A DNA stretch of 64,000 bases from Methanococcoides sp. (GTDB taxonomy: Archaea > Halobacteriota > Methanosarcinia > Methanosarcinales > Methanosarcinaceae). Below the pieces are notes generated by a model, which did no database searches, was not told the origin of the DNA, and saw only the letters and a program-made list of their open reading frames with translations. The position numbers and the translations under genes were made by a program. How positions within the stretch are numbered: position 1 is the stretch's first letter; the number at the start of each line of letters is the position of its first letter. The stretch covers positions 1 to 64,000 of the forward strand of contig JAIORJ010000046.1 in assembly GCA_021108185.1 (NCBI GenBank). The letters run 5' to 3'. Below, one piece after another: positions 4,882 to 58,172 of the stretch.

Positions 4882-5037
4882 ATGGGTCGCTCGTATCCTG
4901 TAAGTGCAAGGGTCTCAGAAGATAGTAAACAATATCTACAAGATCTTGTTGAAAAAGGAGTTGCTATAAACATGTCCGAAGCATTGAAAATATGTATAAG
5001 GTATGCCAAACAAAAGAAAATGGAGGAGGAGATATAA
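4882..5037 (+). CDS. small ribbon-helix-helix-like protein (51 aa), translationally coupled to the ESCRT-III-like gene
   Basis: Not in the ORF track (<60 aa). ATG at 4882 preceded by a GAGGAG SD (4871-4876). Sequence 'MGRSYPVSARVSEDSKQYLQDLVEKGVAINMSEALKICIRYA' fits the beta-strand-helix-helix pattern of CopG/Arc regulators. Stop TAA overlaps the next ATG (taATG at 5035-5039). Confidence 0.45.
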   Translation: MGRSYPVSARVSEDSKQYLQDLVEKGVAINMSEALKICIRYAKQKKMEEEI

Positions 5038-5606
5038 TGGGATTCGCTAATCCATTCAAAAAGGTATCACCTGATGAACTGAAAACAAAGCTATCGATGT
5101 CCGAACAGAGATTGACAGCACGTGAGAAAGAGCTTAACAAGAAGAGACAACAGGCACGTACACAAGCCAAGGATGCCCTTTCAGATGGGAATGACAGGGA
5201 TTTCAGGGTGGCATCTCGCAGATACTCGATGATAGAAGGCCAGGTCAACACCATTGGAAGTATGGTCGAAATGGCGCAGTCCATGACCGACGTAATGGAG
5301 ATGGAAAGTGGACTTAAAGAGGTTGTTGAGATCGGGGAAAACCTCGGAAAATGGCAAAAGCAACTTGGCTTTGATACAACAAAGCTCGAGGGAGCTATTA
5401 CCAATATCCGCACATCCATGGAGAAAGTGAATACTGCTACCAACCTCATGACATCCTCAATGGATGCAGCAATGAACGGTGGCACAGAGCTTAGTGATAT
5501 GCAGGACTCACTTCGATCAGAGCTATTAGCAGAACTTAGCACTGACATATCATCCAAAGATGAGCTATCAAAGAAGATCGATGAAGAGATGGCCGAGTCA
5601 GAGTGA
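5037..5606 (+). CDS. ESCRT-III / Snf7-family protein (CdvB/CHMP-like)
   Basis: Start at ATG 5037, preceded by GGAGGAGGA. 189 aa. Basic N-terminal helical hairpin, acidic C-terminal half, heptad pattern; aligns by eye with CHMP4/Snf7 (for example 'FRVASRRYSMIEGQVNTIGSMVEMAQSM' against Snf7 alpha2-alpha3). The antisense 218-aa ORF is low-complexity and rejected. Confidence 0.65.
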   Translation: MGFANPFKKVSPDELKTKLSMSEQRLTAREKELNKKRQQARTQAKDALSDGNDRDFRVASRRYSMIEGQVNTIGSMVEMAQSMTDVMEMESGLKEVVEIGENLGKWQKQLGFDTTKLEGAITNIRTSMEKVNTATNLMTSSMDAAMNGGTELSDMQDSLRSELLAELSTDISSKDELSKKIDEEMAESE

Positions 5607-5651
5607 TCTGGCAGGATCATACTGACCTACAGATACTGAGGGGGTGCAAAT

Positions 5652-13038: not shown

Positions 13039-15492
13039 TCAGTCAATAAGTCTTGATGAAGCCATAATACAAGGCTGTCCCGACCATTCACCACAGACAA
13101 GCTTTGTTTCGACCCCGACCAGAAAACCACCCGCACCCACCATGACAGTCTCATAGACTAATTTATCCCCAACCCGGGCACTCGAAAGCATAGAATCAAC
13201 ATTATCCCACTCCCCATCAGGATGAAGCTCAAGGTAATGCATATCTGAAATATCCTCGTCTGAAAGTTTCAGACCTTCTACTAGCATCTTATTTGCATAG
13301 AGTACATATCCATCCATGTCCAGTACCACCAAGATCTCATCCACCATATCAACAAGGGACTGAAGGTCATTGTACTTCTTAGAATCATTTGAATCCGAGC
13401 GGATCTTTGAAATGACCACTCCGATCTGAGTAGCAATGGTCTCAAGGGAATTGCGTGCATCGGCAGGGATCTCATATTCGGAATGCGAGGATAAGCAAAG
13501 CGCTGCAATGACCTTCCCATCATGCATCACAGGGATTATACCGGTAGCATGCAAACCCTCGTACTGGTAGCTCTCACCAGTAGTAATAGCACTAAGCTCC
13601 GAATGATGTTTGTAAACCGGTTGCCCGGCCATCACAAGACGGTTCTGCACAGAATTCTTTCCAAACACCGAAATGTCCTTCACAAAACGCTCTGAAAGAC
13701 CTTTATGCGCCACAAGCCTCAGATCCCCAGTTGCTTCATCAAAAAGATATAATCTTCCAGAATCCACCGGCTCGACTTTTAAGCTGAATTCAAGCATCTG
13801 TTCAAAGGTTTCCTCAAGACTATGCGCAGAACTTAGAACACTATCAAGATCAAATTGCATATGCATAAAATCATCAGAATGTTTACGGTCAGTAACATCC
13901 ACAATGATACCCTGCATATGAGCGACATTCCCACCCTCATCGTGCTTGATGAACGTTCTTTCATCCACCCATCGTATATCGCCGAACTTGGTCAATACCC
14001 GATATTCCTGATTAAAATCCATAAAACCTGCATTTATCCTCTTAGAAAGCTCCTTTTGCACCCTATCAAGATCATAAGGATGTACAATATCAGCATACAC
14101 AAACCTTCCCGAAATAAAATCTTCCACCGAATAACCAAACTGAGTCACATTTTCTGAAACGAACTCAACCGGCCAATCAGGGTCAGCGCGCCAAAGGAAG
14201 ACAACCGCAGGACTATTCTTAATGACATCCCCCAGGATCTTCTGTATGTCAAGAGAACGGCGTAGTTCTTCATCCACCCCCCTATGAAGGAGAATACTCC
14301 ACATACCCTGCATCAGAAGTGTGACCTGACGCACATCGGAAAGATCATAATTATCAGTTTTATTGGCAAGCCCTACAAGAGCAACGATCTTGTCCCTTTC
14401 AAATATAGGAACGCTCAAGAATCGATCGATCTTCATATGCCCTTCAGGATATCCCCTTTTAGAAGGATTCTCCTCAGAATAATCATTGACTATGATCGGC
14501 AATCTCTGTTTCAGAGATTCACCCCAAAGCCCGACATCGACCACATGTGACTGAAGTTTCTTTTTGCCCAGAGAACATTCATTCGTAACGCCCTCGGACC
14601 ATGAATCTGTCGTGATGACACTTTCATCATCGCTCATGAATGCCAGATATCCGATCTTGCTATTAGTCAGTCTTACGACCTCATCCCTGGCAAAATCAAT
14701 GATTTCCTGAATGGAAGCATCCGTCATCTGGTACAAACGTAACAGCGCTTCAATACGTTTTTCTTCACTATGAAGTGCATTCTCTATCTTCTTCCTACCA
14801 GTGATATCAAGAATGATACCCTGAAGATATGTCACATTGCCCTGTAGATCATGTTGTATCTGAGTTCTTTCATCGACCCAGCGCACTTCCCCGGACTTTG
14901 TGAGGATACGATACTCCTGGAAGAAATCCGAATATCCGCCCTCAGTACACTTGGAAACACCTGCACGAACACGGTCAATATCATCAGGATGGACAATATC
15001 ACCATAGACCAGCTTCCCCGATATGAAATCCCCCACCGAATAACCGAACATATCAATGTTCTTCGATACGAACGCTACGGGCCAATCCTTCTCTGCCCTC
15101 CAGAGAAATACAACTACCGGACTGGAATTGATAACGGTCTGAAGCGCCTTGTTCATACCAAGAGCACCATCAAGCAAAGCAATATCATCCATCCTTTGCT
15201 CAGTAATATCCAGAATGATACCATGATAGAACTGGATAGAACCGGAATCATCACAATGAGCGGACGTCCTTTCATCGACCCATCGAATATCCCCGGCCTT
15301 TGTGAGAATACGATATCTGAGGTTGAAATTACGGTCTTTATCATCCATATGAAGAGACGTTTCAGATATTACATGATCAACATCATCGGGATGAATAATA
15401 TCAACATAACGAAACTTTCCGGAGATCAGATCTTTTGCATCATACCCGAATTGTGAGATGTTCTCGGAAACGAACTCCACGGGCCAACCCAT
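13039..15492 (-). CDS. multi-PAS/GAF sensor protein without a recognisable output domain
   Basis: Three PAS repeats with the 'SPVVVFLWRAExDWPVEFVS...IIHPDD...YRILTK.G.VRWV.ERT' signature and two GAF-like blocks ('LPIIVNDY...GYPEGH'). No HisKA/HATPase. ATG at 15492 lies inside the first PAS repeat and follows a GGAGGG SD. Confidence 0.7.
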   Translation of the reverse strand: MGWPVEFVSENISQFGYDAKDLISGKFRYVDIIHPDDVDHVISETSLHMDDKDRNFNLRYRILTKAGDIRWVDERTSAHCDDSGSIQFYHGIILDITEQRMDDIALLDGALGMNKALQTVINSSPVVVFLWRAEKDWPVAFVSKNIDMFGYSVGDFISGKLVYGDIVHPDDIDRVRAGVSKCTEGGYSDFFQEYRILTKSGEVRWVDERTQIQHDLQGNVTYLQGIILDITGRKKIENALHSEEKRIEALLRLYQMTDASIQEIIDFARDEVVRLTNSKIGYLAFMSDDESVITTDSWSEGVTNECSLGKKKLQSHVVDVGLWGESLKQRLPIIVNDYSEENPSKRGYPEGHMKIDRFLSVPIFERDKIVALVGLANKTDNYDLSDVRQVTLLMQGMWSILLHRGVDEELRRSLDIQKILGDVIKNSPAVVFLWRADPDWPVEFVSENVTQFGYSVEDFISGRFVYADIVHPYDLDRVQKELSKRINAGFMDFNQEYRVLTKFGDIRWVDERTFIKHDEGGNVAHMQGIIVDVTDRKHSDDFMHMQFDLDSVLSSAHSLEETFEQMLEFSLKVEPVDSGRLYLFDEATGDLRLVAHKGLSERFVKDISVFGKNSVQNRLVMAGQPVYKHHSELSAITTGESYQYEGLHATGIIPVMHDGKVIAALCLSSHSEYEIPADARNSLETIATQIGVVISKIRSDSNDSKKYNDLQSLVDMVDEILVVLDMDGYVLYANKMLVEGLKLSDEDISDMHYLELHPDGEWDNVDSMLSSARVGDKLVYETVMVGAGGFLVGVETKLVCGEWSGQPCIMASSRLID

Positions 15493-44999: not shown

Positions 45000-45243
45000 G
45001 TTCATCAATTAGTATTTTGAGAGAATATACGAAAAGTTGGTTCGGACCTACGCCATGGGAGGAACAACTATTTCAGACAGAATCGAGATGAAATTATTTC
45101 CATACACCACCCATAAATATTGATGCCAATCACAATAATACAGTATATTTTATATTGTTTCAATTGTAATATTAAATCGAAAATATAGTCCTTCATTACA
45201 TTATAAATAAAATAACGTTCATTATAAATTTTAAAGAGGTTTT

Positions 45244-46380
45244 ATGCGAACTTTAGTGATCTGCATCGACAGGGATAATGACCTGGGAGAAAAGGCGAAT
45301 GTCTCCAGCCCGATCATAGGGCGTGAAGATAATATCAAGGCTGCAGTGGAACTTGCTACTGTCGATCCTGAAGACTCCGACTCAAATACGATCTTCGGAG
45401 GCATAAATGTCCTCAATGAGCTACACTCAAAGGGTATTGATGCGGAAATTGTGACCTTTGCAGGGGACAAGAATGTAGGGGTAATATCAGATCAGAGGAT
45501 AGTTGTCCAGCTTGATGCATTCCTGGAAGAGAATGAGATCACGAATGCGATCTTTATTTCCGATGGTGCAGAGGATGAAACTCTTATACCTATCGTCCAA
45601 TCACGCGTCAAGATAGACTCCGTAAAACGAATAGTGGTCCAGCAGAGTGCAAATCTTGAAAGTACATACTACATCCTCAAGAACGCATTCAATGACCCGA
45701 AGATATCACAAACGTTCTTCGTACCAATTGGACTTACAGCATTGATATATGCAATATTCCTTCTGGCAAACTATCCCGAAGGTGCCATAATCGGTATTTC
45801 AGCAGCCATAGGTGCGTACATGCTTTACCGCGGATTCAATCTTGACCAGCCTTTCGCCCTTTTAAGGGAAAAGATGAAGGGGTCCTACTACGAAGGGCAA
45901 ATGACATTTGTGACAAATGCAATTGCCATAATCGTCGCAGTAATAGCCACAATGATAGGAGCGATCACATTGTGGAATTACTTTACTGCAGGCGGTGGCT
46001 GGTATTATGGACTTATCACGTTATTTACCGTATTCATCAATGTTACGGTCTGGTGGTATGTGATAGCCATACTTTTTGCCAACGTCGGAAAAATGGTCGA
46101 CCTGAAAATAAACGATCATTTTTCATTAAAAGATGTTTCACCATCCCTATTCATTATAGCAATGGGATTGCTTTTCTGGGGTGCAAGTACCTACATACTT
46201 ACAGTCAGCGCATTACCCGGTGCAACGGACTCACCCAACCTTAGTATCCAATATTTCATCTATTCAGTAGTAGGAGCGATAATAATTGCTCTTGCAGGCA
46301 TTAAGATATCCCTGAATGGATCCTTTTCTGACACACAACGTAAGATCAAGAAAGGTAAAAAGGATAAAAATAAGAACTAA
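45244..46380 (+). CDS. conserved archaeal integral membrane protein (DUF373-like)
   Basis: Soluble N-terminal domain plus about six TM helices; Lys-rich C-terminus. Confidence 0.45.
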   Translation: MRTLVICIDRDNDLGEKANVSSPIIGREDNIKAAVELATVDPEDSDSNTIFGGINVLNELHSKGIDAEIVTFAGDKNVGVISDQRIVVQLDAFLEENEITNAIFISDGAEDETLIPIVQSRVKIDSVKRIVVQQSANLESTYYILKNAFNDPKISQTFFVPIGLTALIYAIFLLANYPEGAIIGISAAIGAYMLYRGFNLDQPFALLREKMKGSYYEGQMTFVTNAIAIIVAVIATMIGAITLWNYFTAGGGWYYGLITLFTVFINVTVWWYVIAILFANVGKMVDLKINDHFSLKDVSPSLFIIAMGLLFWGASTYILTVSALPGATDSPNLSIQYFIYSVVGAIIIALAGIKISLNGSFSDTQRKIKKGKKDKNKN

Positions 46381-46398
46381 ACCGACAAATTACCACCC

Positions 46399-47163
46399 AT
46401 GAGCGTAGATGTAGCAATACTTGGTGGTGTCGGATCCTCTTCTTTTACAGACGGAGACACAAAGATCGTAGCTACTCCCTATGGAGATGTAGGAGTGTAC
46501 ATCATCCATAACAATGGGAAGAGCATCGCAATGGTCCCCAGACATTCCGGTGCAGCAGAACATGTGCCTCCACACATGATCAATTACCGTGCCATCATAT
46601 GGGCCATCCGTGAACTTGGTGTGAAAAGGATAATAGCAACCAACTCAGTAGGCACCATGAAAGATCATCCAATAGGAAGCTTTGTAGTAACTGATGATTT
46701 TATCGACCTTACCAAAAGCCGCATATCCACGTTCTATGACAAGGAAACCGTTCATGTGGACATGACGGAGCCATATTGTCACATCATAAGCAAATGCCTG
46801 ATGGATTCCCTTGACAAAAAAGGTCTCAGCTATACCAGAGGCACATACGTATGCACCGAAGGACCACGTTTTGAGACACGTGCAGAAATAGTGATGATGA
46901 GCACTTTCGGCGATATAGTGGGAATGACAGGATTACCGGAAGTTGTGCTGGCAAGGGAACTGGAAATTTGTTATGCATCCATCTGCACCATCACTAACCA
47001 GGCTTGCGGAATGGCCGATAGCAAGATAACCACAGATGAAGTTGTGGAAGAACTTAGTACAAAACAGGATATCCTGCTGGAAATACTGTTCGATGCCATC
47101 GAGAACCTTCCCATGGAAAGGGATTGTGGCTGCAAAGATGCAACCCACGGTGCACGCCTTTAA
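46399..47163 (+). CDS. mtnP: 5'-methylthioadenosine / purine nucleoside phosphorylase (PNP family)
   Basis: 'IAMVPRHSGAAEH', 'VGTMKDHPIG', 'CTEGPRFETRAE' PNP/MTAP motifs; Cys-rich C-terminus as in archaeal MTAPs. Confidence 0.75.
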   Translation: MSVDVAILGGVGSSSFTDGDTKIVATPYGDVGVYIIHNNGKSIAMVPRHSGAAEHVPPHMINYRAIIWAIRELGVKRIIATNSVGTMKDHPIGSFVVTDDFIDLTKSRISTFYDKETVHVDMTEPYCHIISKCLMDSLDKKGLSYTRGTYVCTEGPRFETRAEIVMMSTFGDIVGMTGLPEVVLARELEICYASICTITNQACGMADSKITTDEVVEELSTKQDILLEILFDAIENLPMERDCGCKDATHGARL

Positions 47164-47416
47164 GGCAAGTATGGAAATGATGTGAAGGGAATATTATCAC
47201 ACATAATTGCATCGCATGATGTCGTTAATATGAGTTCGAACTGAAATTAGTGAACTACTGAAATTAAATAATCGCTTCCAAGAGAAATAACTAAATACAA
47301 TGTAACATCAATTTTAACGCAGATATTGGATCATAGCAGCTTAAGCTCGTGACTTAAAATTATTATTTGGCGAAGGTCAACCTCTCGACTGTAAAAGGTA
47401 CAGGAAAATAAATACA

Positions 47417-49477
47417 ATGACAAAATTCGATGTAAGAACAGAACTTGAGTCGGTCATTAACAAGAGTCCTGTCGTAGTATTTCTATGCAAAGCAGAACAA
47501 GGCTGGCCTGTGGAATTCGTATCAGATAATGTTGTAAAGTTGGATTACACCGTCGAGGATTTTGAATCCGGACGTATTAACTATGCTGATATTATACATC
47601 CGGATGATCTGGAATATGTTCATTCCGAGGTTTCAAGGAACTCTGGAGAAGGAAGCATAGAATACACCTAGAAATATAGAATACTGACAAAATCCGGAGA
47701 TGTTAGGTGGGTCGATGATAGGACTTTTATTAGACGTGATGAGGATGGGACGATAACCCACTATCAGGGGATCATTCTGGACGTAACTGAACGTCAGGAA
47801 GCAGAAGAAGCCTTGAAGGACGCCTTAAAGCAGACAAAAGAGATGGAATTTGTCATAAATAGTAGTCCTGTAGTCGTATTTATATGGAAGAATGAACCCA
47901 ACTGGCCTGTAGAGTTTGTTTCGGATAATATCCTACAATTTGGGTATACTGCAAATGAGTTAATATCGGGGCAAATTCTCTATTCTGACATTATACATCC
48001 GGATGATCTGGAATATGTTCGTTCAAGTTTTCGAACGAAACCTGAAGAGACTGATAAGGGCTTTACCGTAGATTATAGGATAGTGACCAAATTTGGAGAA
48101 GTTAGGTGGGTCAGTGAGAGAACTTTGATCCGGCGTGACGAAGCTGGTGTGGCCATTTCTCTTCAGGGTATCATTCTTGACATCACAGAACGCAAAAAAG
48201 CAGAAGAAGCCCTTCGTCTTGACGAGTTCCGTCTTGAAGCGCTTTTGAAACTTAACAAAATGGCTGGTGCATCTTTGCAGGAGATCACAGATTTTGCCCG
48301 CGAAGAAGCAGTCAAGCTAACTAAGAGCAAACAGGGTTATCTTGCATTCATGAGTCCGGATGAGAGTGCCCTTATCATGCATTCGTGGTCTAGGGATGCA
48401 ATGGAAGAGTGCAAGATCGGTGACAAACCTTTAGTCTATCCTCTGGAGACCACAGGACTATGGGGAGAAGCCGTAAGGCAGAGAATGCCCATCATTACAA
48501 ATGATTACCAAGCGTCCAATCCCTTTAAGAAAGGATATCCAGAAGGTCATGTGGAACTGAAACGTCATATGAATGTTCCAATCTTCGATGGTGATCGTAT
48601 CGTCATTGTGGCAGGAGTGGGGAATAAAGAAGAGAACTACGATGAATCAGATATCCGCCAGTTGACACTACTGATGCAAGGTATGTGGACACACATACAA
48701 CACAAGTTGGCTGCGGATGAACTTAAACAATACTCGCAAGAGTTGACTAAGATCAACAAGGAGCTCTCTGAAGCAAATGAGGAATTGAAATCCCTTGATA
48801 AAATGAAGGATGAATTCATCTCAAATGTAAGCCATGAACTCAAAACACCTCTTGTATCTATCATAGGATATAGCGAACTTATATATGAAGGTACATTGGG
48901 TAATGTTAGAGATCAGCAGAAAAACGCATTGGAGACGATTTTACGTAATTCCAAGCGGCTCAGACGTTTAGTTGACTCTCTTTTGCACATGAGTCTGACA
49001 CAAGCAGAGGCTATTGAATATGTATTTGAACCGGTTCAGATTGCAGAAATAATAGATGATGCAATCACAGACATGATTCCTTTGATAAATGAGAAAAACT
49101 TGACTATTAAAAAAGATGTGCCTGATAATCTGTCTGATATAAGAGGTGATGAACATAAATTGACAGATCTGTTTACCCATCTTATCGATAATGCAGTCAA
49201 GTTCACCCCTTCTGGTGAAATAACTCTAGAGACATATGAAGAGGAAGATAGTCTGCACATAAAAGTGTCAGATACAGGAATAGGTATCGCCAAAGATCTA
49301 ATTCCCCACCTGTTCCAGAAATTCTATCAGGTTGACTCATCAATAAGGCGCAAATATGGGGGTACCGGACTGGGTCTGTATATATGCAAAAATATTGTTG
49401 AAGCACATAATGGAGAGATCTGGGGCGAAAGTGAGGAAAACGTGGGAACAACAGTTCATGCGAGATTGCCAAAATAA
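47417..49477 (+). CDS. PAS-PAS-GAF histidine kinase (HisKA+HATPase_c) interrupted by one in-frame TAG codon at 47669-47671
   Basis: The track ORFs 47417-47671 and 47813-49477 share a frame, and translation is continuous and conserved across the TAG ('SIEYT*KYRILTKSGDVRWVDDRTF'). H-box 'SHELKTPL', N-box 'DNAVKFT', 'DTGIGI', 'GGTGLGL'. Confidence 0.6.
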
Positions 49478-50051
49478 AAATAGATTTTTTTATTTTGTTT
49501 TTAATTTATTTAGTGTCATAATTATAACCATTTAACAACTAATGTAAATACAGTATGGCAAAAATCATAAAGTCGTTTTTCAAAAATCAGAAAAGCAAGG
49601 GGAAAATGGGTAACAACAATAATGCATACACCCCCCTTGTATTTTGATGCGAGTTATCAGTTGTTATTTAAAATTCAATTTGTCCTCCACTCAACTGCCC
49701 AGCCCTGAATACTTTGCAGAGTTCGCGTGGGGGAAGAGTGTTGCTATCACACTCAACGCAGATCTGCGTTTAGTGGCAGTTCCAACGAGAAGTAGTTTTT
49801 TAATGTACTGGATCGTGTGGTACGAATAAGACGAACGATACGACACCTAAGGCCTTGGAACTGTATCCATTGCTTATGTCTTCATTTTCAGTATTGTTTT
49901 ACAAAATTCTACCATTAATAGAACTGTGAATTCTCATTCTGCTGAATGTTAGATTGAATCTGTTTATTTTTGCTGCCTGTACACAAATCAATCTATTCAT
50001 CACAAACTTGCGTACAGCCTGGAATCGATTAATATATAGAATAAACCTGCA

Positions 50052-51023
50052 TCATTTAGTATCAGAATCAAACTTTTCCTGCCACCCACGCTGTACCCAT
50101 GCTGCTGGCCCATGAATCCTTTTAGCTGCATCTTCAACCCACTTACGTTTAATGTGTGTCCACATGCCCTGCATCAACAACGTCAATTGACGGACATCTG
50201 ATTCATCATAATCCTCTTCTTTGTTTCCAACCCCTGCAACAGCAACGATTCGATTACCATCAAATATGGGGACATTCATGTGGCTTTTTATTTCCACATG
50301 TTCCTCTGGATATCCTTTCTTAAGAGGACTGGAAGTGGAATAATCATTGGTTACAATGGGTTTTCTCTGTCTTACAGCTTCTCCCCAAAGACCGGTACTT
50401 TCCAGAGGATATTCTATGGGTTTATCTCTAATTTTGCAAACTTTCATCGCGATTCTGGACCAGGAATGCATTATGAGAATTTTTTCATCAGCACTCAAAA
50501 ATGCAAGATAGCCCAGCTTGCTTCGGGTAAGTCTTATCCCTTCTTCAAGGGCAAAATCCGTGATCTCCTGCAGTGGTGCTCCAGTCATCTGGCTAAGTTG
50601 CAGCAGTGCTTCCAGGCGAGACACATTGAGTTCCAATGCCTCCTCTGCCTTTTTGCGTTCTGTGATGTCAAGAATGATACCCTGAAGAGAAATGGCCACA
50701 CCAGCTTCGTCACGCCGGATCAAAGTTCTCTCACTAACCCATCTCATATCTCCAAATTTAGTCAGTATTCTATAATCTAAAGTAAAACCTTTATGCACTT
50801 TTTCTTCAAGATATTTGTCAAACTCTGCGCGAACACGTTCCAGATCATCTGGATGTATTATGTCAGCATAGGGAATGCGTCCTGATGTGAAATCTTCTGG
50901 CATATAACCAAATAGCAGGATATTATCTGTTACGTATTCCACAGGCCAGTCTTTCTCTGCCTTCCACAAAAAAACAATTATCGGACTGCTATTGATAATT
51001 TCTTCCATATCAATTTGCGTCAT
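50052..51023 (-). CDS. PAS-GAF sensor protein without output domain (paralog of 13039-15492 and 47417-49477)
   Basis: 'SSPIIVFLWKAEKDWPVEYVTDN...IIHPDD...YRILTKFGDMRWVSERT' and GAF block 'KPIVTNDY...GYPEEH'. Start at ATG 51023 after a GGAGAAAGGGG SD. Confidence 0.7.
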   Translation of the reverse strand: MTQIDMEEIINSSPIIVFLWKAEKDWPVEYVTDNILLFGYMPEDFTSGRIPYADIIHPDDLERVRAEFDKYLEEKVHKGFTLDYRILTKFGDMRWVSERTLIRRDEAGVAISLQGIILDITERKKAEEALELNVSRLEALLQLSQMTGAPLQEITDFALEEGIRLTRSKLGYLAFLSADEKILIMHSWSRIAMKVCKIRDKPIEYPLESTGLWGEAVRQRKPIVTNDYSTSSPLKKGYPEEHVEIKSHMNVPIFDGNRIVAVAGVGNKEEDYDESDVRQLTLLMQGMWTHIKRKWVEDAAKRIHGPAAWVQRGWQEKFDSDTK

Positions 51024-51253
51024 ATTATTCCCCTTTCTCCATTTATTAGACTTCAGAAGAATCAAACTCTCTGCCAGGTGGCATCATGATAATTTTACTG
51101 TACTATTGCAGATATTAATTACCGAATATCCATTTGTGTAAATGTTTTTATTTTATGCTATATCTACTTATCTGACTTGGGCGAAAGGTAAAACAAGAAG
51201 AAATTAATATAAATGTCAGGATTTTATCTAAATCACAATAAAAATAAATATTT

Positions 51254-52060
51254 TTAATCGTTTGGTTTAATATTTTTAAACATATCTGCTTTTGCATTTT
51301 CATAACTAATTTCAAATATTTTCAAATTGCCTTTTAGATCTATCACATTGAAATTAAACAATCTGGCAAATTCATCTACTTTTTCCTCGAAATCCTTTTC
51401 ATAGGCAAGGCCAGTATCGACCTTTGCAACATGTTTGTATCCCGCATAATCGAAAACTATCTTTACCATTTCTATATCATTGGGATCAGGAGTAAGACGC
51501 GTGATCACCACCATATCTCTCCAGCGGGCTGCCTGCATTGGAGTGAGGAAATAAATTCCCTCTCCTTTTGTGTCCTTCAGGGGCTGCATATAGACTTCCC
51601 TTCCACCAAGGGCTGCGCAGATACAGTCGTCTACGATCCTGTCTTCCTCATCTTTGAGTATACTGATAGGGCATGGACAGGATTCAAAATCTTTTTCAAT
51701 ATTTACGAGCACGTTTCCGCATAATCCATAGAAAACAAGTATGCTGTCAGAATATTTGACCATCAGATCCACAGTTTTGTACACTTCATCCTTTAGACGT
51801 TCTCCTTGTGAATCAAGTTCGATCTCAAGTAAATATACAATAAGGGAAAATCTCTCAACGTCTTTTCTTTCGGATTTAATGGTTATTTTAGCAAGAGGCA
51901 GTACTGCATGGGAATATCCTATATCATTCAGTTTCTGATCCAATCCAACAGAATTCTCATTTTCAACTACGATCACTTCATCAAGTGTTGGATCATTTTG
52001 GATCAGATAAACAATTTCATCTTCAAACATTTCACAGCCTACAATACTCATTACAGGCAT
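51254..52060 (-). CDS. hypothetical protein (DUF1638-like?)
   Basis: 268-aa ORF with coherent codon usage; Cys pairs 'CPCP' and 'DCICAA'; no assignable function. Confidence 0.4.
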   Translation of the reverse strand: MPVMSIVGCEMFEDEIVYLIQNDPTLDEVIVVENENSVGLDQKLNDIGYSHAVLPLAKITIKSERKDVERFSLIVYLLEIELDSQGERLKDEVYKTVDLMVKYSDSILVFYGLCGNVLVNIEKDFESCPCPISILKDEEDRIVDDCICAALGGREVYMQPLKDTKGEGIYFLTPMQAARWRDMVVITRLTPDPNDIEMVKIVFDYAGYKHVAKVDTGLAYEKDFEEKVDEFARLFNFNVIDLKGNLKIFEISYENAKADMFKNIKPND

Positions 52061-53075
52061 AGATATTTCTCCCCTTTTGGATTAAAGATATTTAGATTGT
52101 TTATTTTTCAGTTCATTTATGGAGACCTGAAAGTTTCCAGAGCTAATTAAATGTCAATTGAAGTCCCCATTTCTGCAGTTATCTTTTATTTTGCATTATC
52201 CCATTAATCTATTAGCTTTTTCTACATATAAATCTCTTGAACAAAATTTGCCATTTCTACATCAGTAGGAATAATTATGCATCAACGTTTCGGAATTCTG
52301 TTCGAGAACCAATTTATCGAGCCTTTAGGTACTTCTTATCAAATACATAGTATAGTATTATAATCTACCAATTGTACCAAAAATATGGTTTCAATAGATA
52401 CCAAATATACCCAGATATTACCATGAAAAAAGATCCATTATAAGATACTACATATCCCCCTCTGAAACTAAAGCCGAATATGAGCTATCAATTGCAGAAC
52501 TTAGAAAATGAAAAATAACGTGCTTTAATTATCCCCTATGAAATGATATGCCTAAGTTCCGTATTATTTTTCGAAAAGCGGAAATAAAGAGACTTGATTT
52601 TACTAGTTTAGAGAACTACATGCTAATTGGTCTATTCCTACATGTGTAGGAAACTCCTTTGAACACTTGAACATATGCCAGAGATTTTATTCATGCCCAC
52701 GTGTATGGAAAACTCTGTCACATTTTGCTTTTTGCCTTTTTCTACAGGTAGAACAGATAGTGTAAACCGTTTATTTTTGTCAATGATGTACAGTAAGATA
52801 TATGAATAAAATGAGTTTGTTGACTTTTATGCTTGTCTTCGTATTACATATCCCGAATTTGAAACATCTGTTTGACCATAGTAAGGATCATTGGTGTAAT
52901 CGATAGCAAAGTCATATTTTGGTTAGACATTAATATTTGAAGAAGGACCGATTTCAAGAAAACTGTTCAGGGTAACTCTTAGGAAAAAGAGTTAAAACCA
53001 GATATAGGATAGAATGGAATAGAACTGTATAATGGGAAGGAAAAAAAGTAATATATTACCCTGTGCTGTCGTTCA

Positions 53076-53978
53076 TCATGCAATATCCCTTGAAGTATCG
53101 ATCTGCACACCTTCTGAAATTTTGAACTTGAGAATGTCCGAATTTGGCACCATTCCGCGTATCTTGGGAATTGCGAGCTTGCTTATTACATGATCACGGT
53201 CGCAGTCAACGCTTACATCGAAGATGACATCAGAAGCATTAAGCACTTCATTTTCAATCTTCTTATCATAGCATCCCTTCAATGAATAAAGGTAGGTCAT
53301 GCTATTGATCTCTTTAGAGGTCTCGTAGATTATGTTGGTCAAACGCTTCAACAGACCGGGATTCACATTCAGCTTCATGAAGAATGAGAAATTGTCAAAG
53401 ATAATGTTGATATCTTCATCACCAGCATCTTTCTGGATGTTGCGCAGATTATATTCAGTGAACTCGATGATCTTGGAGTCGACATACTCATTGCCCACAT
53501 TATCGATCATATCACCCAGTTGAGTAAAATAATACTCGCTGTAGATATCGACAAATATGATACGAGAAGGATCAAGGTGCTGATCCATGATATCCCTCAT
53601 GATATATTTAGGTCTGCGGCCTGTGGTAAAATAGTACGTCTTGCGTGCTTGAGTAAATTCGTAAAGGAAGACCTCTGCCATCGATCTGGGATCTGCCGAA
53701 AAATAGATCATGGAACTAAGTGGCAAACCACCGCCAAGGTTTCTGTCCAGAACGTAGATACCAGTGGGTGAAATGACAGGATCTTTATAGACCGGGGTCT
53801 TAGGCTCAGGCACTTGACCACGAGTAGAGACTAACGACTTTGGAACGGCACACAAGTCAAGTTTACGTTTGCTGATAACCTCTTCTGAAGTCGAGCGTTC
53901 TTGTACTGCTTCATTTTGCTGCTGCGACGACTTTGGAGTAAGTATTACCTCCACACCCATAGAAAGACTACCTGACAT
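53076..53978 (-). CDS. RecA/KaiC-superfamily domain protein with degenerate Walker A (FlaH/KaiC-like, probably non-catalytic)
   Basis: 'GIYVLDRNLGGGLPLSSMIYFSADPRSM' aligns with the KaiC/RadA 'G...LD..LGGG.P.GS..L..G.PGTGKT' block, but the P-loop is replaced by SADPRSM. Confidence 0.45.
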   Translation of the reverse strand: MSGSLSMGVEVILTPKSSQQQNEAVQERSTSEEVISKRKLDLCAVPKSLVSTRGQVPEPKTPVYKDPVISPTGIYVLDRNLGGGLPLSSMIYFSADPRSMAEVFLYEFTQARKTYYFTTGRRPKYIMRDIMDQHLDPSRIIFVDIYSEYYFTQLGDMIDNVGNEYVDSKIIEFTEYNLRNIQKDAGDEDINIIFDNFSFFMKLNVNPGLLKRLTNIIYETSKEINSMTYLYSLKGCYDKKIENEVLNASDVIFDVSVDCDRDHVISKLAIPKIRGMVPNSDILKFKISEGVQIDTSRDIA

Positions 53979-54050
53979 GTTCTACCCCCACCAATTGTAT
54001 CCATGTAATATTGTTCAAGAAATATATAACTGTGCGCATACATATAAGGA

Positions 54051-54080
54051 TTGTGAACACATATACACTTTTGTGAACAC
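54051..54080 (+). promoter_or_regulatory. direct repeat TTGTGAACAC x2 (20-nt spacing) in the divergent promoter region between the KaiC-like gene and the helicase
   Basis: Exact 10-mer at 54051-54060 and 54071-54080; TATA-like AAATATATAA at 54021 and TTTATATAT at 54112. Confidence 0.35.
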
Positions 54081-54145
54081 CTTTATTCTAAAAAGGTTTG
54101 GACAAACATGATTTATATATGAATACACCTCTTTGAAATCAGAAA

Positions 54146-56623
54146 ATGACTTTGTGGACATTCCTAAAAGCTGAAAAGGCAAAGGTCATCGTAATGGCCA
54201 TCAAAGACCGTAAAAGAGTGCCACTCCTAACCGGGGAGCTCATCCTTCACACATCCCCTGCAGGCCCACGTCCGCATAAATTTCGCGTGGTCAAAGATGA
54301 TAAAGAGGAGTTAAGACAACCAGAGGAGTTCATTGAGCTTCTCAGGATCTCAGAGCGCATTCTTATCGATGTTGAGAGTGAAAAGAGGAGCGAAGCTGCC
54401 GTCCGGGAATTTATGGATGATTTCCACCTGGAATCGGAAGATGTGCATGTGTGCAGGTTCTGTCTGCTAAAGAAACAGTTCAATTTCATTAATAAGAAGT
54501 CGATCAAATATCATCACGAACTAATTTGCGAGGATTGTGCAAAGGAAGAGCTTGAGATGGCACTTCGTAATGCACATAGTTATATTGGTGATGAGGCTGC
54601 AGATCGCATCCTGCAGATCATGCTCACCACGCGTGACCTTGACCGTACCATAGGCATGCTGAGCCCGGAAGAACTTGACCTTGAATATACACGGTTCGAT
54701 ACGATAGAGCAACAGACACATGCCAATAAGATAAAGATAAAGGATGTTCCGCTCTCAAAAAAGCTTAAAGATATACTGCTTCAAAAATCCGATACATTCC
54801 TGCCGGTACAATCACTATCCATCGAAAAGGGATTGCTGGAGAGAAGGAATCAGCTTGTTACATCAGTTACTGCTACCGGAAAGACCCTTATTGGAGAGAT
54901 CGCGGGTATTGAGAACATCTTGCATGGACACGGAAAGATGCTCTATCTTGTCCCTCTTGTGGCACTGGCGAACCAGAAATATGATCAGTTCAACAAACGT
55001 TATTCTGGGATAGGGCTCAATACCTCGATAAGGGTAGGAAGTTCGAAGATAAGGACATCGAAGACAAACAAGATGAAAAGGGGACTTGATGCCGACATTA
55101 TAGTGGGTACATATGAAGGTCTTGACGTTATACTTCGTACAGGGGATGCCGATCTTCTGGGACAGATCGGTACTGTGGTCATCGATGAAGTGCATATGAT
55201 AGAAGACTCTGAGCGCGGTCACCGTCTGGATGGAGTTATCGGGAGGCTCAAATACGTTGCATCAGGTGCACAGTTCATTTACCTTTCAGCAACTGTGGCA
55301 AAACCAAAGTTGCTCGCAAAAAGACTCAATACCGAGCTTGTGGAATATGAATACAGGCCGGTACCCATTGAAAGGCATCTGCTTTTCTGCCCGGAGAGCA
55401 GCAAGATCAGACTGATGACAAAGCTTGCCAAAGACGAGTATGCCAAGGTTTCTTCGAAGGGACACCGGGGACAGACGATCATATTCACAAATTCACGCCG
55501 GAACTGTCACAGTATCGCACAGGCAATATCAATGCCCGCATCCCCATACCATGCCGGTCTTTCAATGGAGGAGAGAAAGAAGGTCGAAAGGCGGTTCGAG
55601 AAGGGAGACATACCAGTAGTGGTAACTACAGCAGCCCTTGCGGCAGGAGTGGATTTCCCGGCATCGCAGGTCATCTTTGAATCCCTCGCCATGGGTATAG
55701 AATGGCTGAACATGCAGGAGTTCCTGCAGATGCTTGGCCGTGCGGGAAGGCCTGATTTCCATGACCGAGGTATTGTCGTCTTGCTTGCCACCCCTCAAAA
55801 GCATTATACCAGTGAGCAGACCGGTACTGAAGAGGAAGTTGCCATCAGGCTGTTGAATGGCGAGATGGAACATACGGATGTGAAGTATGGTGAAGAGGAA
55901 CAGATAGAGGAGATCCTGGCAACCGCTGCTGTAACCACATCCAAAAGGGACCTGGAGACCATACACCGGAACATGCTGGCGGACTTTGAATTTAGTTCAT
56001 TGCTTGCTAAATTGAAAAAGAAGAAGTTCATTACCATAAAGGATGATCACATCACACTTACGAAGTTCGGAAGTATTGCCGCCGGACATTTCCTTTCGAT
56101 CTCAAAGGCGTTCTTGATACGTGATGCGGTCCTTTCCGACCATAGAGCCATAGAGATAGTCACGAATCTCGAGTTCTTCGAGGCTGTTTATTTCAAGTAT
56201 GCAGCCCAGATATCAACTGCCCTGAAGATAAATATGCCTTCAAGGGTGTTCCAGGGAGCTTCAATGGATATTGTTATGGAGGGTGAGAACCTTTCGAAAC
56301 TTGAGACCAAGATGCAGGACCAGATACTGGACTTTGCTGCGGATTTCCTGACGTGTGGATGCAAGGATAGCCCATTTTGCGGATGTCCTGAGCATTTGTT
56401 CTCCGAGAAGATCATCAACATGAGGATGGATGGTTATGATCCTATACAGATAGTCAGGCAGCTTGAGGATAAATACGGTATTACTGCATATCCGGGAGAT
56501 CTGCTCGGATATCTTGATGATACTATAAGAAACCTTGATGCTGTTGAGAGGATAGCGGCAGTATATTCAAAGAAAGAGATCGCATATTCTGCAAAAGATC
56601 TGAAAAAGCTCATTGAAGGATAA
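54146..56623 (+). CDS. Ski2-like superfamily-2 helicase with N-terminal C4 zinc-finger domain (ASH-Ski2 type)
   Basis: N-terminal 'CRFC...CEDC', Walker A 'ATGKT', 'DEVH' box, motif VI 'QMLGRAGR', C-terminal 'CGCKDSPFCGC'. Confidence 0.7.
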   Translation: MTLWTFLKAEKAKVIVMAIKDRKRVPLLTGELILHTSPAGPRPHKFRVVKDDKEELRQPEEFIELLRISERILIDVESEKRSEAAVREFMDDFHLESEDVHVCRFCLLKKQFNFINKKSIKYHHELICEDCAKEELEMALRNAHSYIGDEAADRILQIMLTTRDLDRTIGMLSPEELDLEYTRFDTIEQQTHANKIKIKDVPLSKKLKDILLQKSDTFLPVQSLSIEKGLLERRNQLVTSVTATGKTLIGEIAGIENILHGHGKMLYLVPLVALANQKYDQFNKRYSGIGLNTSIRVGSSKIRTSKTNKMKRGLDADIIVGTYEGLDVILRTGDADLLGQIGTVVIDEVHMIEDSERGHRLDGVIGRLKYVASGAQFIYLSATVAKPKLLAKRLNTELVEYEYRPVPIERHLLFCPESSKIRLMTKLAKDEYAKVSSKGHRGQTIIFTNSRRNCHSIAQAISMPASPYHAGLSMEERKKVERRFEKGDIPVVVTTAALAAGVDFPASQVIFESLAMGIEWLNMQEFLQMLGRAGRPDFHDRGIVVLLATPQKHYTSEQTGTEEEVAIRLLNGEMEHTDVKYGEEEQIEEILATAAVTTSKRDLETIHRNMLADFEFSSLLAKLKKKKFITIKDDHITLTKFGSIAAGHFLSISKAFLIRDAVLSDHRAIEIVTNLEFFEAVYFKYAAQISTALKINMPSRVFQGASMDIVMEGENLSKLETKMQDQILDFAADFLTCGCKDSPFCGCPEHLFSEKIINMRMDGYDPIQIVRQLEDKYGITAYPGDLLGYLDDTIRNLDAVERIAAVYSKKEIAYSAKDLKKLIEG

Positions 56624-56689
56624 GATGGGTTTATTCCGAATGGGACAAACCCTTTTAAGCGATGTTGACAATTACTTTCCAAATAAGGC

Positions 56690-57085
56690 ATGGTTTTTGA
56701 AGGATATATTAATATGACCGAAGATAAGATCGCTCCCGAAGGGAAAGTTGCAAAGAAGTTGAAGATAGAGGTTGTTAAACCTGAGAACTTTAAACAGACC
56801 TATGCTATTGGTGCATTGGGTGGTCACAGTCCTTACGATTTCAGGATCGGTTTCTATAATGACAGCCCTAAAGGGTTTGAGAAATCTTCGAATTCACAGG
56901 TCATACAGAGGTCCATCGAGACAGAAGTGATCATGTCACCTCTTGCCGCACTGGAACTATCACACTGGCTTGAACAGCATATTCGCGACTTTGAAGCTAT
57001 GTTCGGACCTATCGCGAAAGTGAAGAACCATCCACGTGCAGTAGAACAGCCAGAAGATACAGCCGAAATACAGGGATATATCTAA
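56690..57085 (+). CDS. hypothetical protein
   Basis: 131-aa ORF; alternative start at ATG 56714 after a GAAGGA SD. Confidence 0.4.
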   Translation: MVFEGYINMTEDKIAPEGKVAKKLKIEVVKPENFKQTYAIGALGGHSPYDFRIGFYNDSPKGFEKSSNSQVIQRSIETEVIMSPLAALELSHWLEQHIRDFEAMFGPIAKVKNHPRAVEQPEDTAEIQGYI

Positions 57086-57224
57086 GAGATCACCTACGAT
57101 CTACAATTTGTGGGAACGATGTTTTACTTCTAATCGGTAACCATAAATAGTAGGCAGAACACTTTACTTTTTCCGATATATAGTATTGATTATTATCTAT
57201 TAACAATGATGTGAGGATACAATC

Positions 57225-57899: not shown

Positions 57900-57977
57900 G
57901 CTCCGGTAGTGTAGTCCGGCCAATCATTCCAGCCTTTCGAGCTGAAAACTCGGGTTCGAATCCCGGCCGGAGCACCA
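57900..57977 (+). tRNA. tRNA-Glu(TTC), CCA encoded
   Basis: Hand-folded: acceptor GCTCCGG/CCGGAGC, D-arm GTGTAGTCCGGCCAATCA typical of archaeal tRNA-Glu, anticodon loop CTTTCGA, T-arm TCGGG-TTCGAAT-CCCGG. Confidence 0.85.
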
Positions 57978-58094: not shown

Positions 58095-58172
58095 GCTCCG
58101 GTAGTGTAGTCCGGCCAATCATTCCAGCCTTTCGAGCTGAAAACTCGGGTTCGAATCCCGGCCGGAGCACCA
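58095..58172 (+). tRNA. tRNA-Glu(TTC), second tandem copy
   Basis: Identical mature sequence to 57900-57977. About 195-nt tandem duplication including the leader hairpin GCTCGCTTCAATGCGAGC and the oligo-T trailer. Confidence 0.85.

Follow-up and report, generated by a model that had tools for sequence, protein, structure and literature searches.

Pyrrolysine (Pyl) in a signalling protein has been described for RdmS (MA0863) of Methanosarcina acetivorans, a 'Pyl-containing sensor kinase' that carries a TAG codon in the second of its PAS domains (PMC12626013). Truncation at this TAG gives a product of about 26 kDa, and in western blots the N-terminally FLAG-tagged protein appears as a long and a short form in a Pyl-proficient background and as the short form only in a pylBCD deletion (PMC12626013). 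Recombinant RdmS was made as an O216K variant to which heme is covalently bound (PMC7542351), and the published RdmS biochemistry that we found in the literature uses this variant. RdmS, a methyl-sulfide-methyltransferase-associated kinase, is classified as MA_type 2, has no H-box and is not an autokinase (PMC11784639). A conserved in-frame UAG had been predicted in 2013 in sensory histidine kinases of M. acetivorans, M. barkeri and Methanohalophilus mahii (PMC3639795). Here we analyse a kinase gene that has a TAG in frame, found in a stretch of 64,000 nucleotides (nt) of Methanococcoides sp. (positions 1 to 64,000 of contig JAIORJ010000046.1, assembly GCA_021108185.1), which is referred to as the window. 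No published mention of a UAG kinase in Methanococcoides was found in our literature search; the phenomenon itself is already known, as the homologous case of RdmS is published and experimentally supported, and the window gene is a further member. We regard it as very probable that its TAG is a conserved Pyl codon in the first PAS domain (PAS1), at the site homologous to that of RdmS, that ambiguous decoding yields both a kinase of 686 amino acids (aa) with Pyl at residue 85 (Pyl85) and an 84-aa fragment, and that the transmitter of this kinase is chimeric.

Two other kinds of proteins are relevant to the comparison. MsmS (MA4561), a heme-based redox and dimethyl-sulfide sensor kinase, belongs to the same methyltransferase-associated PAS/GAF family (PMC6944256, PMC11784639). 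MsmS has no H-box, and no description of it as a Pyl-containing protein was found in the literature, the primary MsmS paper lying outside the scope of the search. In the methylamine methyltransferases MtmB, MtbB and MttB, the machinery that reads UAG as Pyl is the one proposed here, and Pyl, as the catalytic residue, serves to activate methylamines (PMC9842639). MtmB occurs side by side in a truncated and a full-length form (cited in PMC12626013). Pyl is thus catalytic in the methyltransferases, whereas the UAG of the window gene lies in a sensor domain.

The window gene is a single forward-strand frame, 47417-49477, that runs from ATG 47417 to TAA 49475-49477 and comprises 686 codons including the TAG (Table 1). 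Its sole in-frame interruption is TAG 47669-47671, codon 85, and frame analysis thus agrees with the original prediction, made from the letters of this stretch, that two annotated open reading frames (ORFs) are one frame broken only by this codon. Gene callers divide the frame into an 84-aa ORF (47417-47671) and a 554-aa ORF that starts from TTG 47813, and once the gene is split in this manner codons 47672-47812 carry no annotation. When the TAG is read through, Pfam recognizes PAS_3 twice (best stretch at residues 34-120), PAS at 142-256, GAF_2 at 285-428, HisKA at 463-527 (64 bits) and HATPase_c at 577-685. The protein has three cysteines in all, C24, C332 in the GAF domain and C657; we take Cys332, which is part of an HSWS..AM.EC motif, to be a putative heme ligand. 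No other TAG within the window is flanked on both sides by credible coding sequence. The description of the gene as a PAS-PAS-GAF histidine kinase with the TAG inside a PAS domain is therefore retained, while the claim that paralogs have Glu or Asp at the position of the TAG proved to be one residue off. The window paralogs have Gln, Val or Leu in the TAG column itself (FNQEYRVL, FTVDYRIV, FTLDYRIL), and database homologs have Gln or His there; the Glu or Asp of the paralogs pairs with Lys86, the codon after the TAG, which is Glu in most orthologs.

Table 1. Coordinates of the kinase gene, its parts and its inverted paralog in the window.
Feature	Position	Strand	Basis
Complete read-through coding sequence, Pyl-PAS/PAS/GAF/HisKA/HATPase_c	47417..49477	+	Frame analysis and Pfam
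In-frame TAG, codon 85, predicted pyrrolysine codon, between F-alpha and G-beta of PAS1	47669..47671	+	Homologue alignment and AlphaFold2
Codons 1-84, PAS1 from A-beta to F-alpha; the short product in case of termination at UAG	47417..47668	+	Gene calls
Cys24 in the A-beta strand (VVFLCK), signature of TAG modules	47486..47488	+	Module comparison
47 codons from TAG to the called TTG start; G-beta, H-beta and I-beta of PAS1	47672..47812	+	dN/dS and AlphaFold2
PAS domain 2; sense codon Val (GTA) at the TAG-equivalent position	47840..48184	+	Pfam and alignment
GAF_2, conserved Cys332 (48410-48412) in motif HSWS..AMEEC	48269..48700	+	Pfam and alignment
HisKA (DHp), canonical H-box SHELKTPL, His473 at 48833-48835	48803..48997	+	Pfam
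HATPase_c catalytic domain	49145..49471	+	Pfam
3' segment, 98-100% identical to M. alaskense kinase L003	48407..49458	+	Sliding-window comparison
Inverted PAS-GAF paralog, 337 aa, sequence exchange with the kinase	50052..51065	-	Pfam and comparison with L001

The TAG is real and conserved. An independent metagenome contig from another sample (L001, ERZ26872904) covers window positions 45017-57163 and has the same TAG; its differences from the window consist of a 41-nt patch at 50676-50716 and one base near the end of the locus. The M. alaskense ortholog (L007) is 70% identical at the protein level over all 686 residues and has TAG at the same codon, after ...SIEYT, i.e. codon 85, which is also its position in M. 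methylutens MM1 (L083). At the homologous codon, TAG is found in M. methylutens, in Methanohalophilus portucalensis (L084/L085), in Methanosarcina sp. (L086/L087) and in the metagenome loci L088-L091 and L134. The comparison with orthologs, which the original prediction had left to be made, thus gave TAG and not a sense codon in every DNA-checked relative (11/11 loci). For eight relatives found by protein search (drawn from L083, L084/L085, L086/L087 and L088-L091) the DNA was translated through the stop: each has TAG, and the frame goes on to a full-length multidomain protein, running to the contig end in the case of L088. In L089 (4454-5831), a Methanohalophilus-like metagenome ortholog, the TAG is kept and an in-frame internal deletion has removed the end of the GAF domain and the linker (...TRHMN/DETLDIIND...).

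The same picture emerges from protein databases, where the gene is found in pieces. A protein search with residues 1-144 returned ten 90%-identity clusters of ORFs that are exactly 84 aa long, with identities of 70-99%, from M. alaskense, M. methylutens, Methanohalophilus portucalensis, Methanohalophilus sp. RSK, a Methanococcoides metagenome-assembled genome (MAG) and metagenome samples. The 84-aa ORF of the window falls in one 90% cluster with MCD4806418.1 from a Methanococcoides sp. MAG and is 99% identical to the cluster representative. Methanosarcina ORFs of 215 aa, and one ORF of 229 aa, terminate at the corresponding point in a second PAS domain, and none of the matches of at least 60% identity to this query has a sense codon across the site. 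Public annotations name the first part a separate 84-aa 'PAS domain-containing protein', and the split into this short ORF and a kinase that lacks its N-terminus recurs in every genome examined, NCBI included. An exhaustive HMMER search with residues 1-135 gave 125,808 PAS hits; the best 150 are all multi-PAS proteins of at most 56% identity, so this search is of no use for counting TAG-bearing relatives.

Purifying selection is seen on both sides of the TAG. When nine modules are aligned by codon, all of them have the TAG (9/9), and the adjacent codons vary synonymously or conservatively. The ratio of nonsynonymous to synonymous substitution rates (dN/dS, Nei-Gojobori method) is 0.04-0.40 upstream of the TAG (75 codons) and 0.04-0.26, where computable, downstream of it (48 codons), with synonymous sites saturated between genera (dS >1). 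Because the ratio is low on both sides, the segment between the TAG and TTG 47813 is, judging from its pattern of substitution, translated in the same frame. The downstream conservation noted at the outset is thus borne out, and the homologous frame runs on past the TAG. The called downstream starts differ among orthologs, from +31 to about +190 nt past the TAG.

The fold is likewise continuous. Residues 1-135 were modelled with AlphaFold2 from an alignment of 14 sequences, X standing for residue 85, and the result is a confident PAS fold (predicted local distance difference test score, pLDDT, 90.9) that is unbroken across residue 85. In the model this residue sits between the long helix F-alpha (62-77) and strand G-beta (87-90), and the three strands that complete the PAS1 sheet come after the TAG. 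Foldseek comparison with the PDB gave generic PAS, LOV and FixL matches only. The 84-aa product is, according to the model, half a PAS domain that would be unable to form the PAS fold.

The window gene resembles RdmS in several respects. Its UAG is at the homologous PAS_3 position (O216 of RdmS), and both have PAS/GAF sensor modules, the conserved Cys motif of the GAF domain and a HATPase_c domain at the C-terminus. A Methanosarcina homolog that is RdmS-like (L086) has 979 aa, a PAS/PAS(TAG)/GAF/PAS/GAF/ATPase architecture and TAG at codon 216, and its motif around this codon, ..CT-O-EHRVLTKSG.VR.IDDRT, is that of the window gene. By analogy, decoding into long and short forms would be expected for the window gene as well. 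On the other hand, RdmS is about 980 aa long (PAS/Pyl-PAS/GAF/PAS/GAF/ATPase) with Pyl in the second PAS domain, whereas the window gene encodes 686 aa with Pyl in the first, and has a canonical HisKA H-box that RdmS lacks. The genomic neighbourhoods are also different. Downstream of L086 lie a FilR1/HTH-type (helix-turn-helix) regulator and a gene in which B12-binding and URO-D domains are fused, and this neighbourhood is common to M. methylutens, M. alaskense and Methanohalophilus (L083, L007, L084). RdmS adjoins an Msr regulator and the RdmS homologs found here adjoin the FilR1-type regulator and the fused corrinoid methyltransferase gene, whereas the window gene has neither; its neighbours are DUF373, a PNP-family phosphorylase, the inverted PAS-GAF gene and DUF1638.

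The difference in the kinase domain can be traced to the middle of the GAF domain. The M. alaskense and M. methylutens genes (L007/L083, annotated as ORFs of 84 aa and 545-555 aa) are orthologous to the window gene over Pyl-PAS, PAS and half of GAF; their C-terminal halves have no HisKA and are, over most of the half, 56-69% identical to the window gene. Pfam found no HisKA in the RdmS-type orthologs L007, L084 and L086. In a sliding-window comparison, the segment from 47417 to about 48400 is 86-93% identical at the nucleotide level to the RdmS-type gene L007 of M. alaskense, and from about 48407 onwards the identity is 98-100% to another kinase of the same species (L003, PAS/GAF/HisKA/HATPase). 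Judging from these identities, the window gene is a chimera in which an RdmS-type sensor is joined in mid-GAF, with a breakpoint at about 48400, to a canonical H-box transmitter, which accounts for the H-box. The transmitter half, from mid-GAF onwards, would thus have come from a canonical H-box histidine kinase paralog. The window gene therefore stands outside the RdmS/MsmS (MA_type 2) kinases, and its sensor half alone is RdmS-type: we did not file it as MA_type 2 because an H-box is present and the regulator and methyltransferase neighbours are missing. In M. alaskense the two genes of the parental types are located about 26 kb apart on one contig.

There are further signs of rearrangement at this locus. 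L091 shows a third arrangement, in which the Pyl-PAS gene is fused to the tail of the PAS-GAF paralog, inverted relative to the window. A patch at 50671-50721, in the inverted paralog (reverse-strand gene 50052-51065), is identical to part of PAS2 of the kinase (48127-48176, 50/50 nt) and encodes RRDEAGVAISLQGIIL; the version of L001 and M. alaskense L007 at this place differs and seems to be ancestral (QRDEDGKISHYEGIIL). The patch looks like gene conversion between inverted paralogs, or it is possibly an assembly artefact of the repeat. As a separate observation, the 337-aa PAS-GAF protein (window 50052-52060 on the reverse strand, L005, L006, L007) has a conserved C-terminal tail, WVEDAAKRIHGPAAWVQRGWQEKFDSDTK, and its gene is in every case accompanied by a DUF1638 gene; the pair shows 98% nucleotide identity in M. 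alaskense and is present in two copies in Methanolobus sp. ZRKC3. The two loci of the latter (L005, L006) had been considered as orthologs of the kinase and were rejected, being orthologs of this neighbouring paralog.

Where the TAG came from can be approached through related modules with a sense codon. Metagenomes of the Joint Genome Institute (JGI) were scanned with degenerate DNA of the conserved flanks in which the site codon was left free, and the 55 loci found have CAG (31), CAA (6), Ser codons (14), CAC (1), CTG (1) or TAG (2) at the site. The sister state of the site, as read from these sequences, is Gln (CAG), one transition away from TAG. Most likely a single transition in a Gln codon, CAG, gave rise to the TAG, which would have been kept since before Methanococcoides, Methanohalophilus and Methanosarcina diverged. 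Five loci (L125, L135, L115, L140 and L145) appear to be the nearest sense-codon relatives; they have CAG or CAA at the site, e.g. EGRTEYT-Q-EYRIITKSGEVRWIDDRTWIRR, and Trp in A-beta. To date the change from CAG to TAG, these loci would be the obvious outgroup. As a control for chance conservation we used two-fold codons: among 20 codons whose amino acid is invariant, 2 keep the same codon across eight sequences. By this crude measure neutral retention of TAG over CAG is improbable, with a probability of about 0.1.

A second residue goes together with the TAG. The A-beta strand has a Cys (VVFLC[KT], Cys24 in the window gene) in 10/10 distinct TAG modules and in none of the 42 modules that have Gln, Ser, His or Leu at the site (0/42); in these, the A-beta residue is Trp in 36 and otherwise Arg, Lys or unresolved. 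An exception to the pairing is PAS1 of the Methanosarcina protein, which has Cys together with Gln. As the TAG modules form one clade, the Cys is to be taken as a signature and not as a proof of co-evolution. The TAG-bearing module itself occurs in at least six domain architectures: Pyl-PAS/PAS/GAF/ATPase; Pyl-PAS/GAF/ATPase; PAS/Pyl-PAS/GAF/PAS/GAF/ATPase; PAS/Pyl-PAS/multiple PAS/GAF; Pyl-PAS/PAS/GAF without a kinase; and Pyl-PAS/PAS/GAF/HisKA/ATPase, which is that of the window gene.

With respect to decoding, no PYLIS- or SECIS-like (pyrrolysine or selenocysteine insertion sequence) element was found 3' of the TAG: RNAalifold on seven orthologs gave -6.27 kcal/mol with covariation of about 0, and the window RNA 3' of the TAG folds no better than shuffled sequences (z = 0.05). 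According to the current view Pyl is inserted without a dedicated element, and the ambiguous reading of UAG results from Pyl-tRNA and aRF1 competing for it (PMC12626013); the absence of a 3' RNA structure fits this kind of decoding. Organisms that decode Pyl are expected to be depleted in TAG terminators, and this depletion is present in the window, a small sample of 58 ORFs of at least 100 aa from one window (43% G+C), which end in TGA (32), TAA (25) and TAG (1). The lone TAG-terminated ORF, at 4964-5620 on the reverse strand, is Ser-rich, has no Pfam match and is probably not a gene. An ORF antisense to it (4992-5606, forward strand) also has no Pfam match, so that about 650 bp there are without a recognisable gene.

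The 64-kb window contains no pyl genes, no methylamine methyltransferase genes and no further in-frame TAGs; the neighbouring genes are housekeeping ones, e.g. IleRS, ProRS, aIF5B and NDK. For Methanococcoides burtonii tRNA-Pyl and pylS have been listed (PMC3639795). The origin from Methanosarcinales, guessed from the gene content, was correct: parts of the window match M. alaskense DSM 17273 at 98-100% nucleotide identity.

The TAG can be explained in several other ways. A sequencing or assembly error at 47669-47671 has nothing in its favour beyond the prior that single-base errors occur, and the same codon in a second assembly from another sample (L001) and in isolate genomes of related species makes its chance practically negligible. 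A pseudogene created by a nonsense mutation would be in keeping with a premature stop within a large, redundant paralog family and with a recombinant gene in a rearrangement-prone locus; yet the identical TAG is found across genera, there is no second stop or frameshift in 686 codons, and on either side of the TAG dN/dS stays well below 1, which renders this idea scarcely credible. The original prediction had listed a very recent nonsense mutation or a sequencing error among its options, and both can be set aside in view of the TAG in an independent assembly, three cultured genera and several metagenome lineages, and of the purifying selection around it. It is also highly unlikely that the TAG is a true stop, followed by a 554-aa kinase that is translated from the internal TTG 47813 alongside an 84-aa peptide. 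Gene callers and the NCBI annotation do divide the locus in this way in every genome, and partial termination at UAG occurs in M. acetivorans (PMC12626013), but the 47 codons between TAG and TTG 47813 are under strong in-frame purifying selection and encode the three beta strands that complete PAS1, the internal starts are not conserved among orthologs, and a half-PAS of 84 aa would not fold alone.

More serious competitors are those in which the codon is read through but Pyl itself need not matter. It is possible, if on balance doubtful, that UAG is kept mainly as a dosage switch: the proportion of kinase to a dead 84-aa fragment would track the supply of and demand for Pyl-tRNA and so couple the sensor to methylamine metabolism. 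Both the long and the short form of RdmS occur in vivo, the efficiency of read-through has been estimated to be different for growth on methanol and on trimethylamine, and TAG is enriched in regulatory genes (PMC12626013); moreover, with no recoding RNA structure, decoding should hinge on the tRNA/aRF1 balance. A switch, however, could use any codon, yet the TAG is fixed at one structural position through at least six architectures and co-occurs with a specific Cys, and the data presented here do not separate a switch from a functional Pyl. We are somewhat more sceptical about a neutral Gln-to-Pyl substitution kept by drift, as proposed for Pyl in tRNA-His guanylyltransferase (Thg1); Pyl would then have no specific role. 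The sister PAS_3 modules, with the same flanks and mostly Gln codons (CAG in 31/55 and CAA in 6/55 loci) one transition from TAG in the case of CAG, agree with such an origin, the O216K variant of RdmS is still produced and binds heme (PMC7542351), and the two-fold-codon control makes neutral retention improbable to a limited degree only. Drift is at odds, though, with a TAG that is invariant in all DNA-checked clade members from three genera with saturated synonymous sites, and no CAG revertant was seen among the close relatives examined; a truncated product is a cost of a stop-prone codon that drift alone should remove. Thg1 of M. acetivorans is a non-methyltransferase with an in-frame UAG (Heinemann et al. 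2009, cited in PMC12626013 and PMC3639795). For its UAG, as for the UAG of the PAS module, it is plausible that a sense codon was replaced neutrally. The UAG of Thg1 is not known outside a narrow lineage, unlike the PAS UAG, which spans at least three genera and several domain architectures.

We favour the explanation that the TAG is a conserved and ambiguously decoded Pyl codon, which supports the suggestion of a Pyl-containing or conditionally read-through sensor kinase in the original prediction and agrees with what is published on RdmS (PMC12626013, PMC7542351, PMC3639795). Pyl-tRNA(CUA) would compete with aRF1 at the UAG, as in Pyl-decoding Methanosarcinaceae in general, and no RNA signal would be required. 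Two products would result, a 686-aa cytoplasmic kinase with Pyl85 at the junction of F-alpha and G-beta in PAS1 and an N-terminal fragment of 84 aa, in a ratio set by the supply of Pyl-tRNA. We further speculate, with less confidence than we would grant to a dosage switch or to drift, that Pyl85 is a working part of the sensor. Its electrophilic pyrroline ring, with or without the help of Cys24, might bind or react with methylamine, ammonia, sulfide or a thiol, or form a redox-reversible adduct, and/or the dosage of read-through at the UAG might report the supply of Pyl-tRNA.

Several points weigh against the favoured explanation. Insertion of Pyl in this gene and organism is a prediction from sequence; the 64-kb window contains no pyl genes, and Pyl decoding is deduced at the level of the genus. 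If the site were neutral, it would be only moderately improbable for TAG to be kept over CAG, and the lineages sampled are not independent of each other. The gene is a recent chimera without an adjacent Msr-type regulator or mts gene, so it may have another role than RdmS or be heading for loss. Finally, the chimera might be a metagenome mis-join at the GAF paralogs, which is unlikely because two assemblies have the junction in common.

Two other loci in the window deserve to be mentioned. A paralog of 817 aa without a kinase domain (PAS/PAS/GAF/PAS/GAF, 13039-15492, reverse strand) has its ATG, at 15492, midway through a PAS domain (MGWPVEF...). The N-terminal part that this PAS domain lacks (..EEVFKSVINSSPAVVFLWRAE) lies in frame upstream, as far as about 15660, with no ATG, GTG or TTG back to the preceding TAA; the gene has either a non-canonical start or a decaying 5' end. 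Two tandem tRNA-Glu(UUC) genes are located on the forward strand at 57900-57977 and 58095-58172, about 120 nt apart.

What is new here is the depth and strictness of the TAG conservation, the Gln ancestry of the site, the Cys co-signature and the chimeric H-box transmitter. Far from being a curiosity of Methanosarcina, the UAG of RdmS belongs to one PAS module in which it is deeply conserved across the Methanosarcinaceae. Re-annotation of these genomes with UAG as Pyl would mend a recurrent gene-splitting error. Outside the methylamine methyltransferases the reasons for Pyl in proteins are almost unknown, and the PAS module makes a role of Pyl in signalling testable. If Pyl85 should indeed bind or react with a ligand, or form a redox-reversible adduct, the 22nd amino acid would for the first time be seen to sense a signal in a non-catalytic role.

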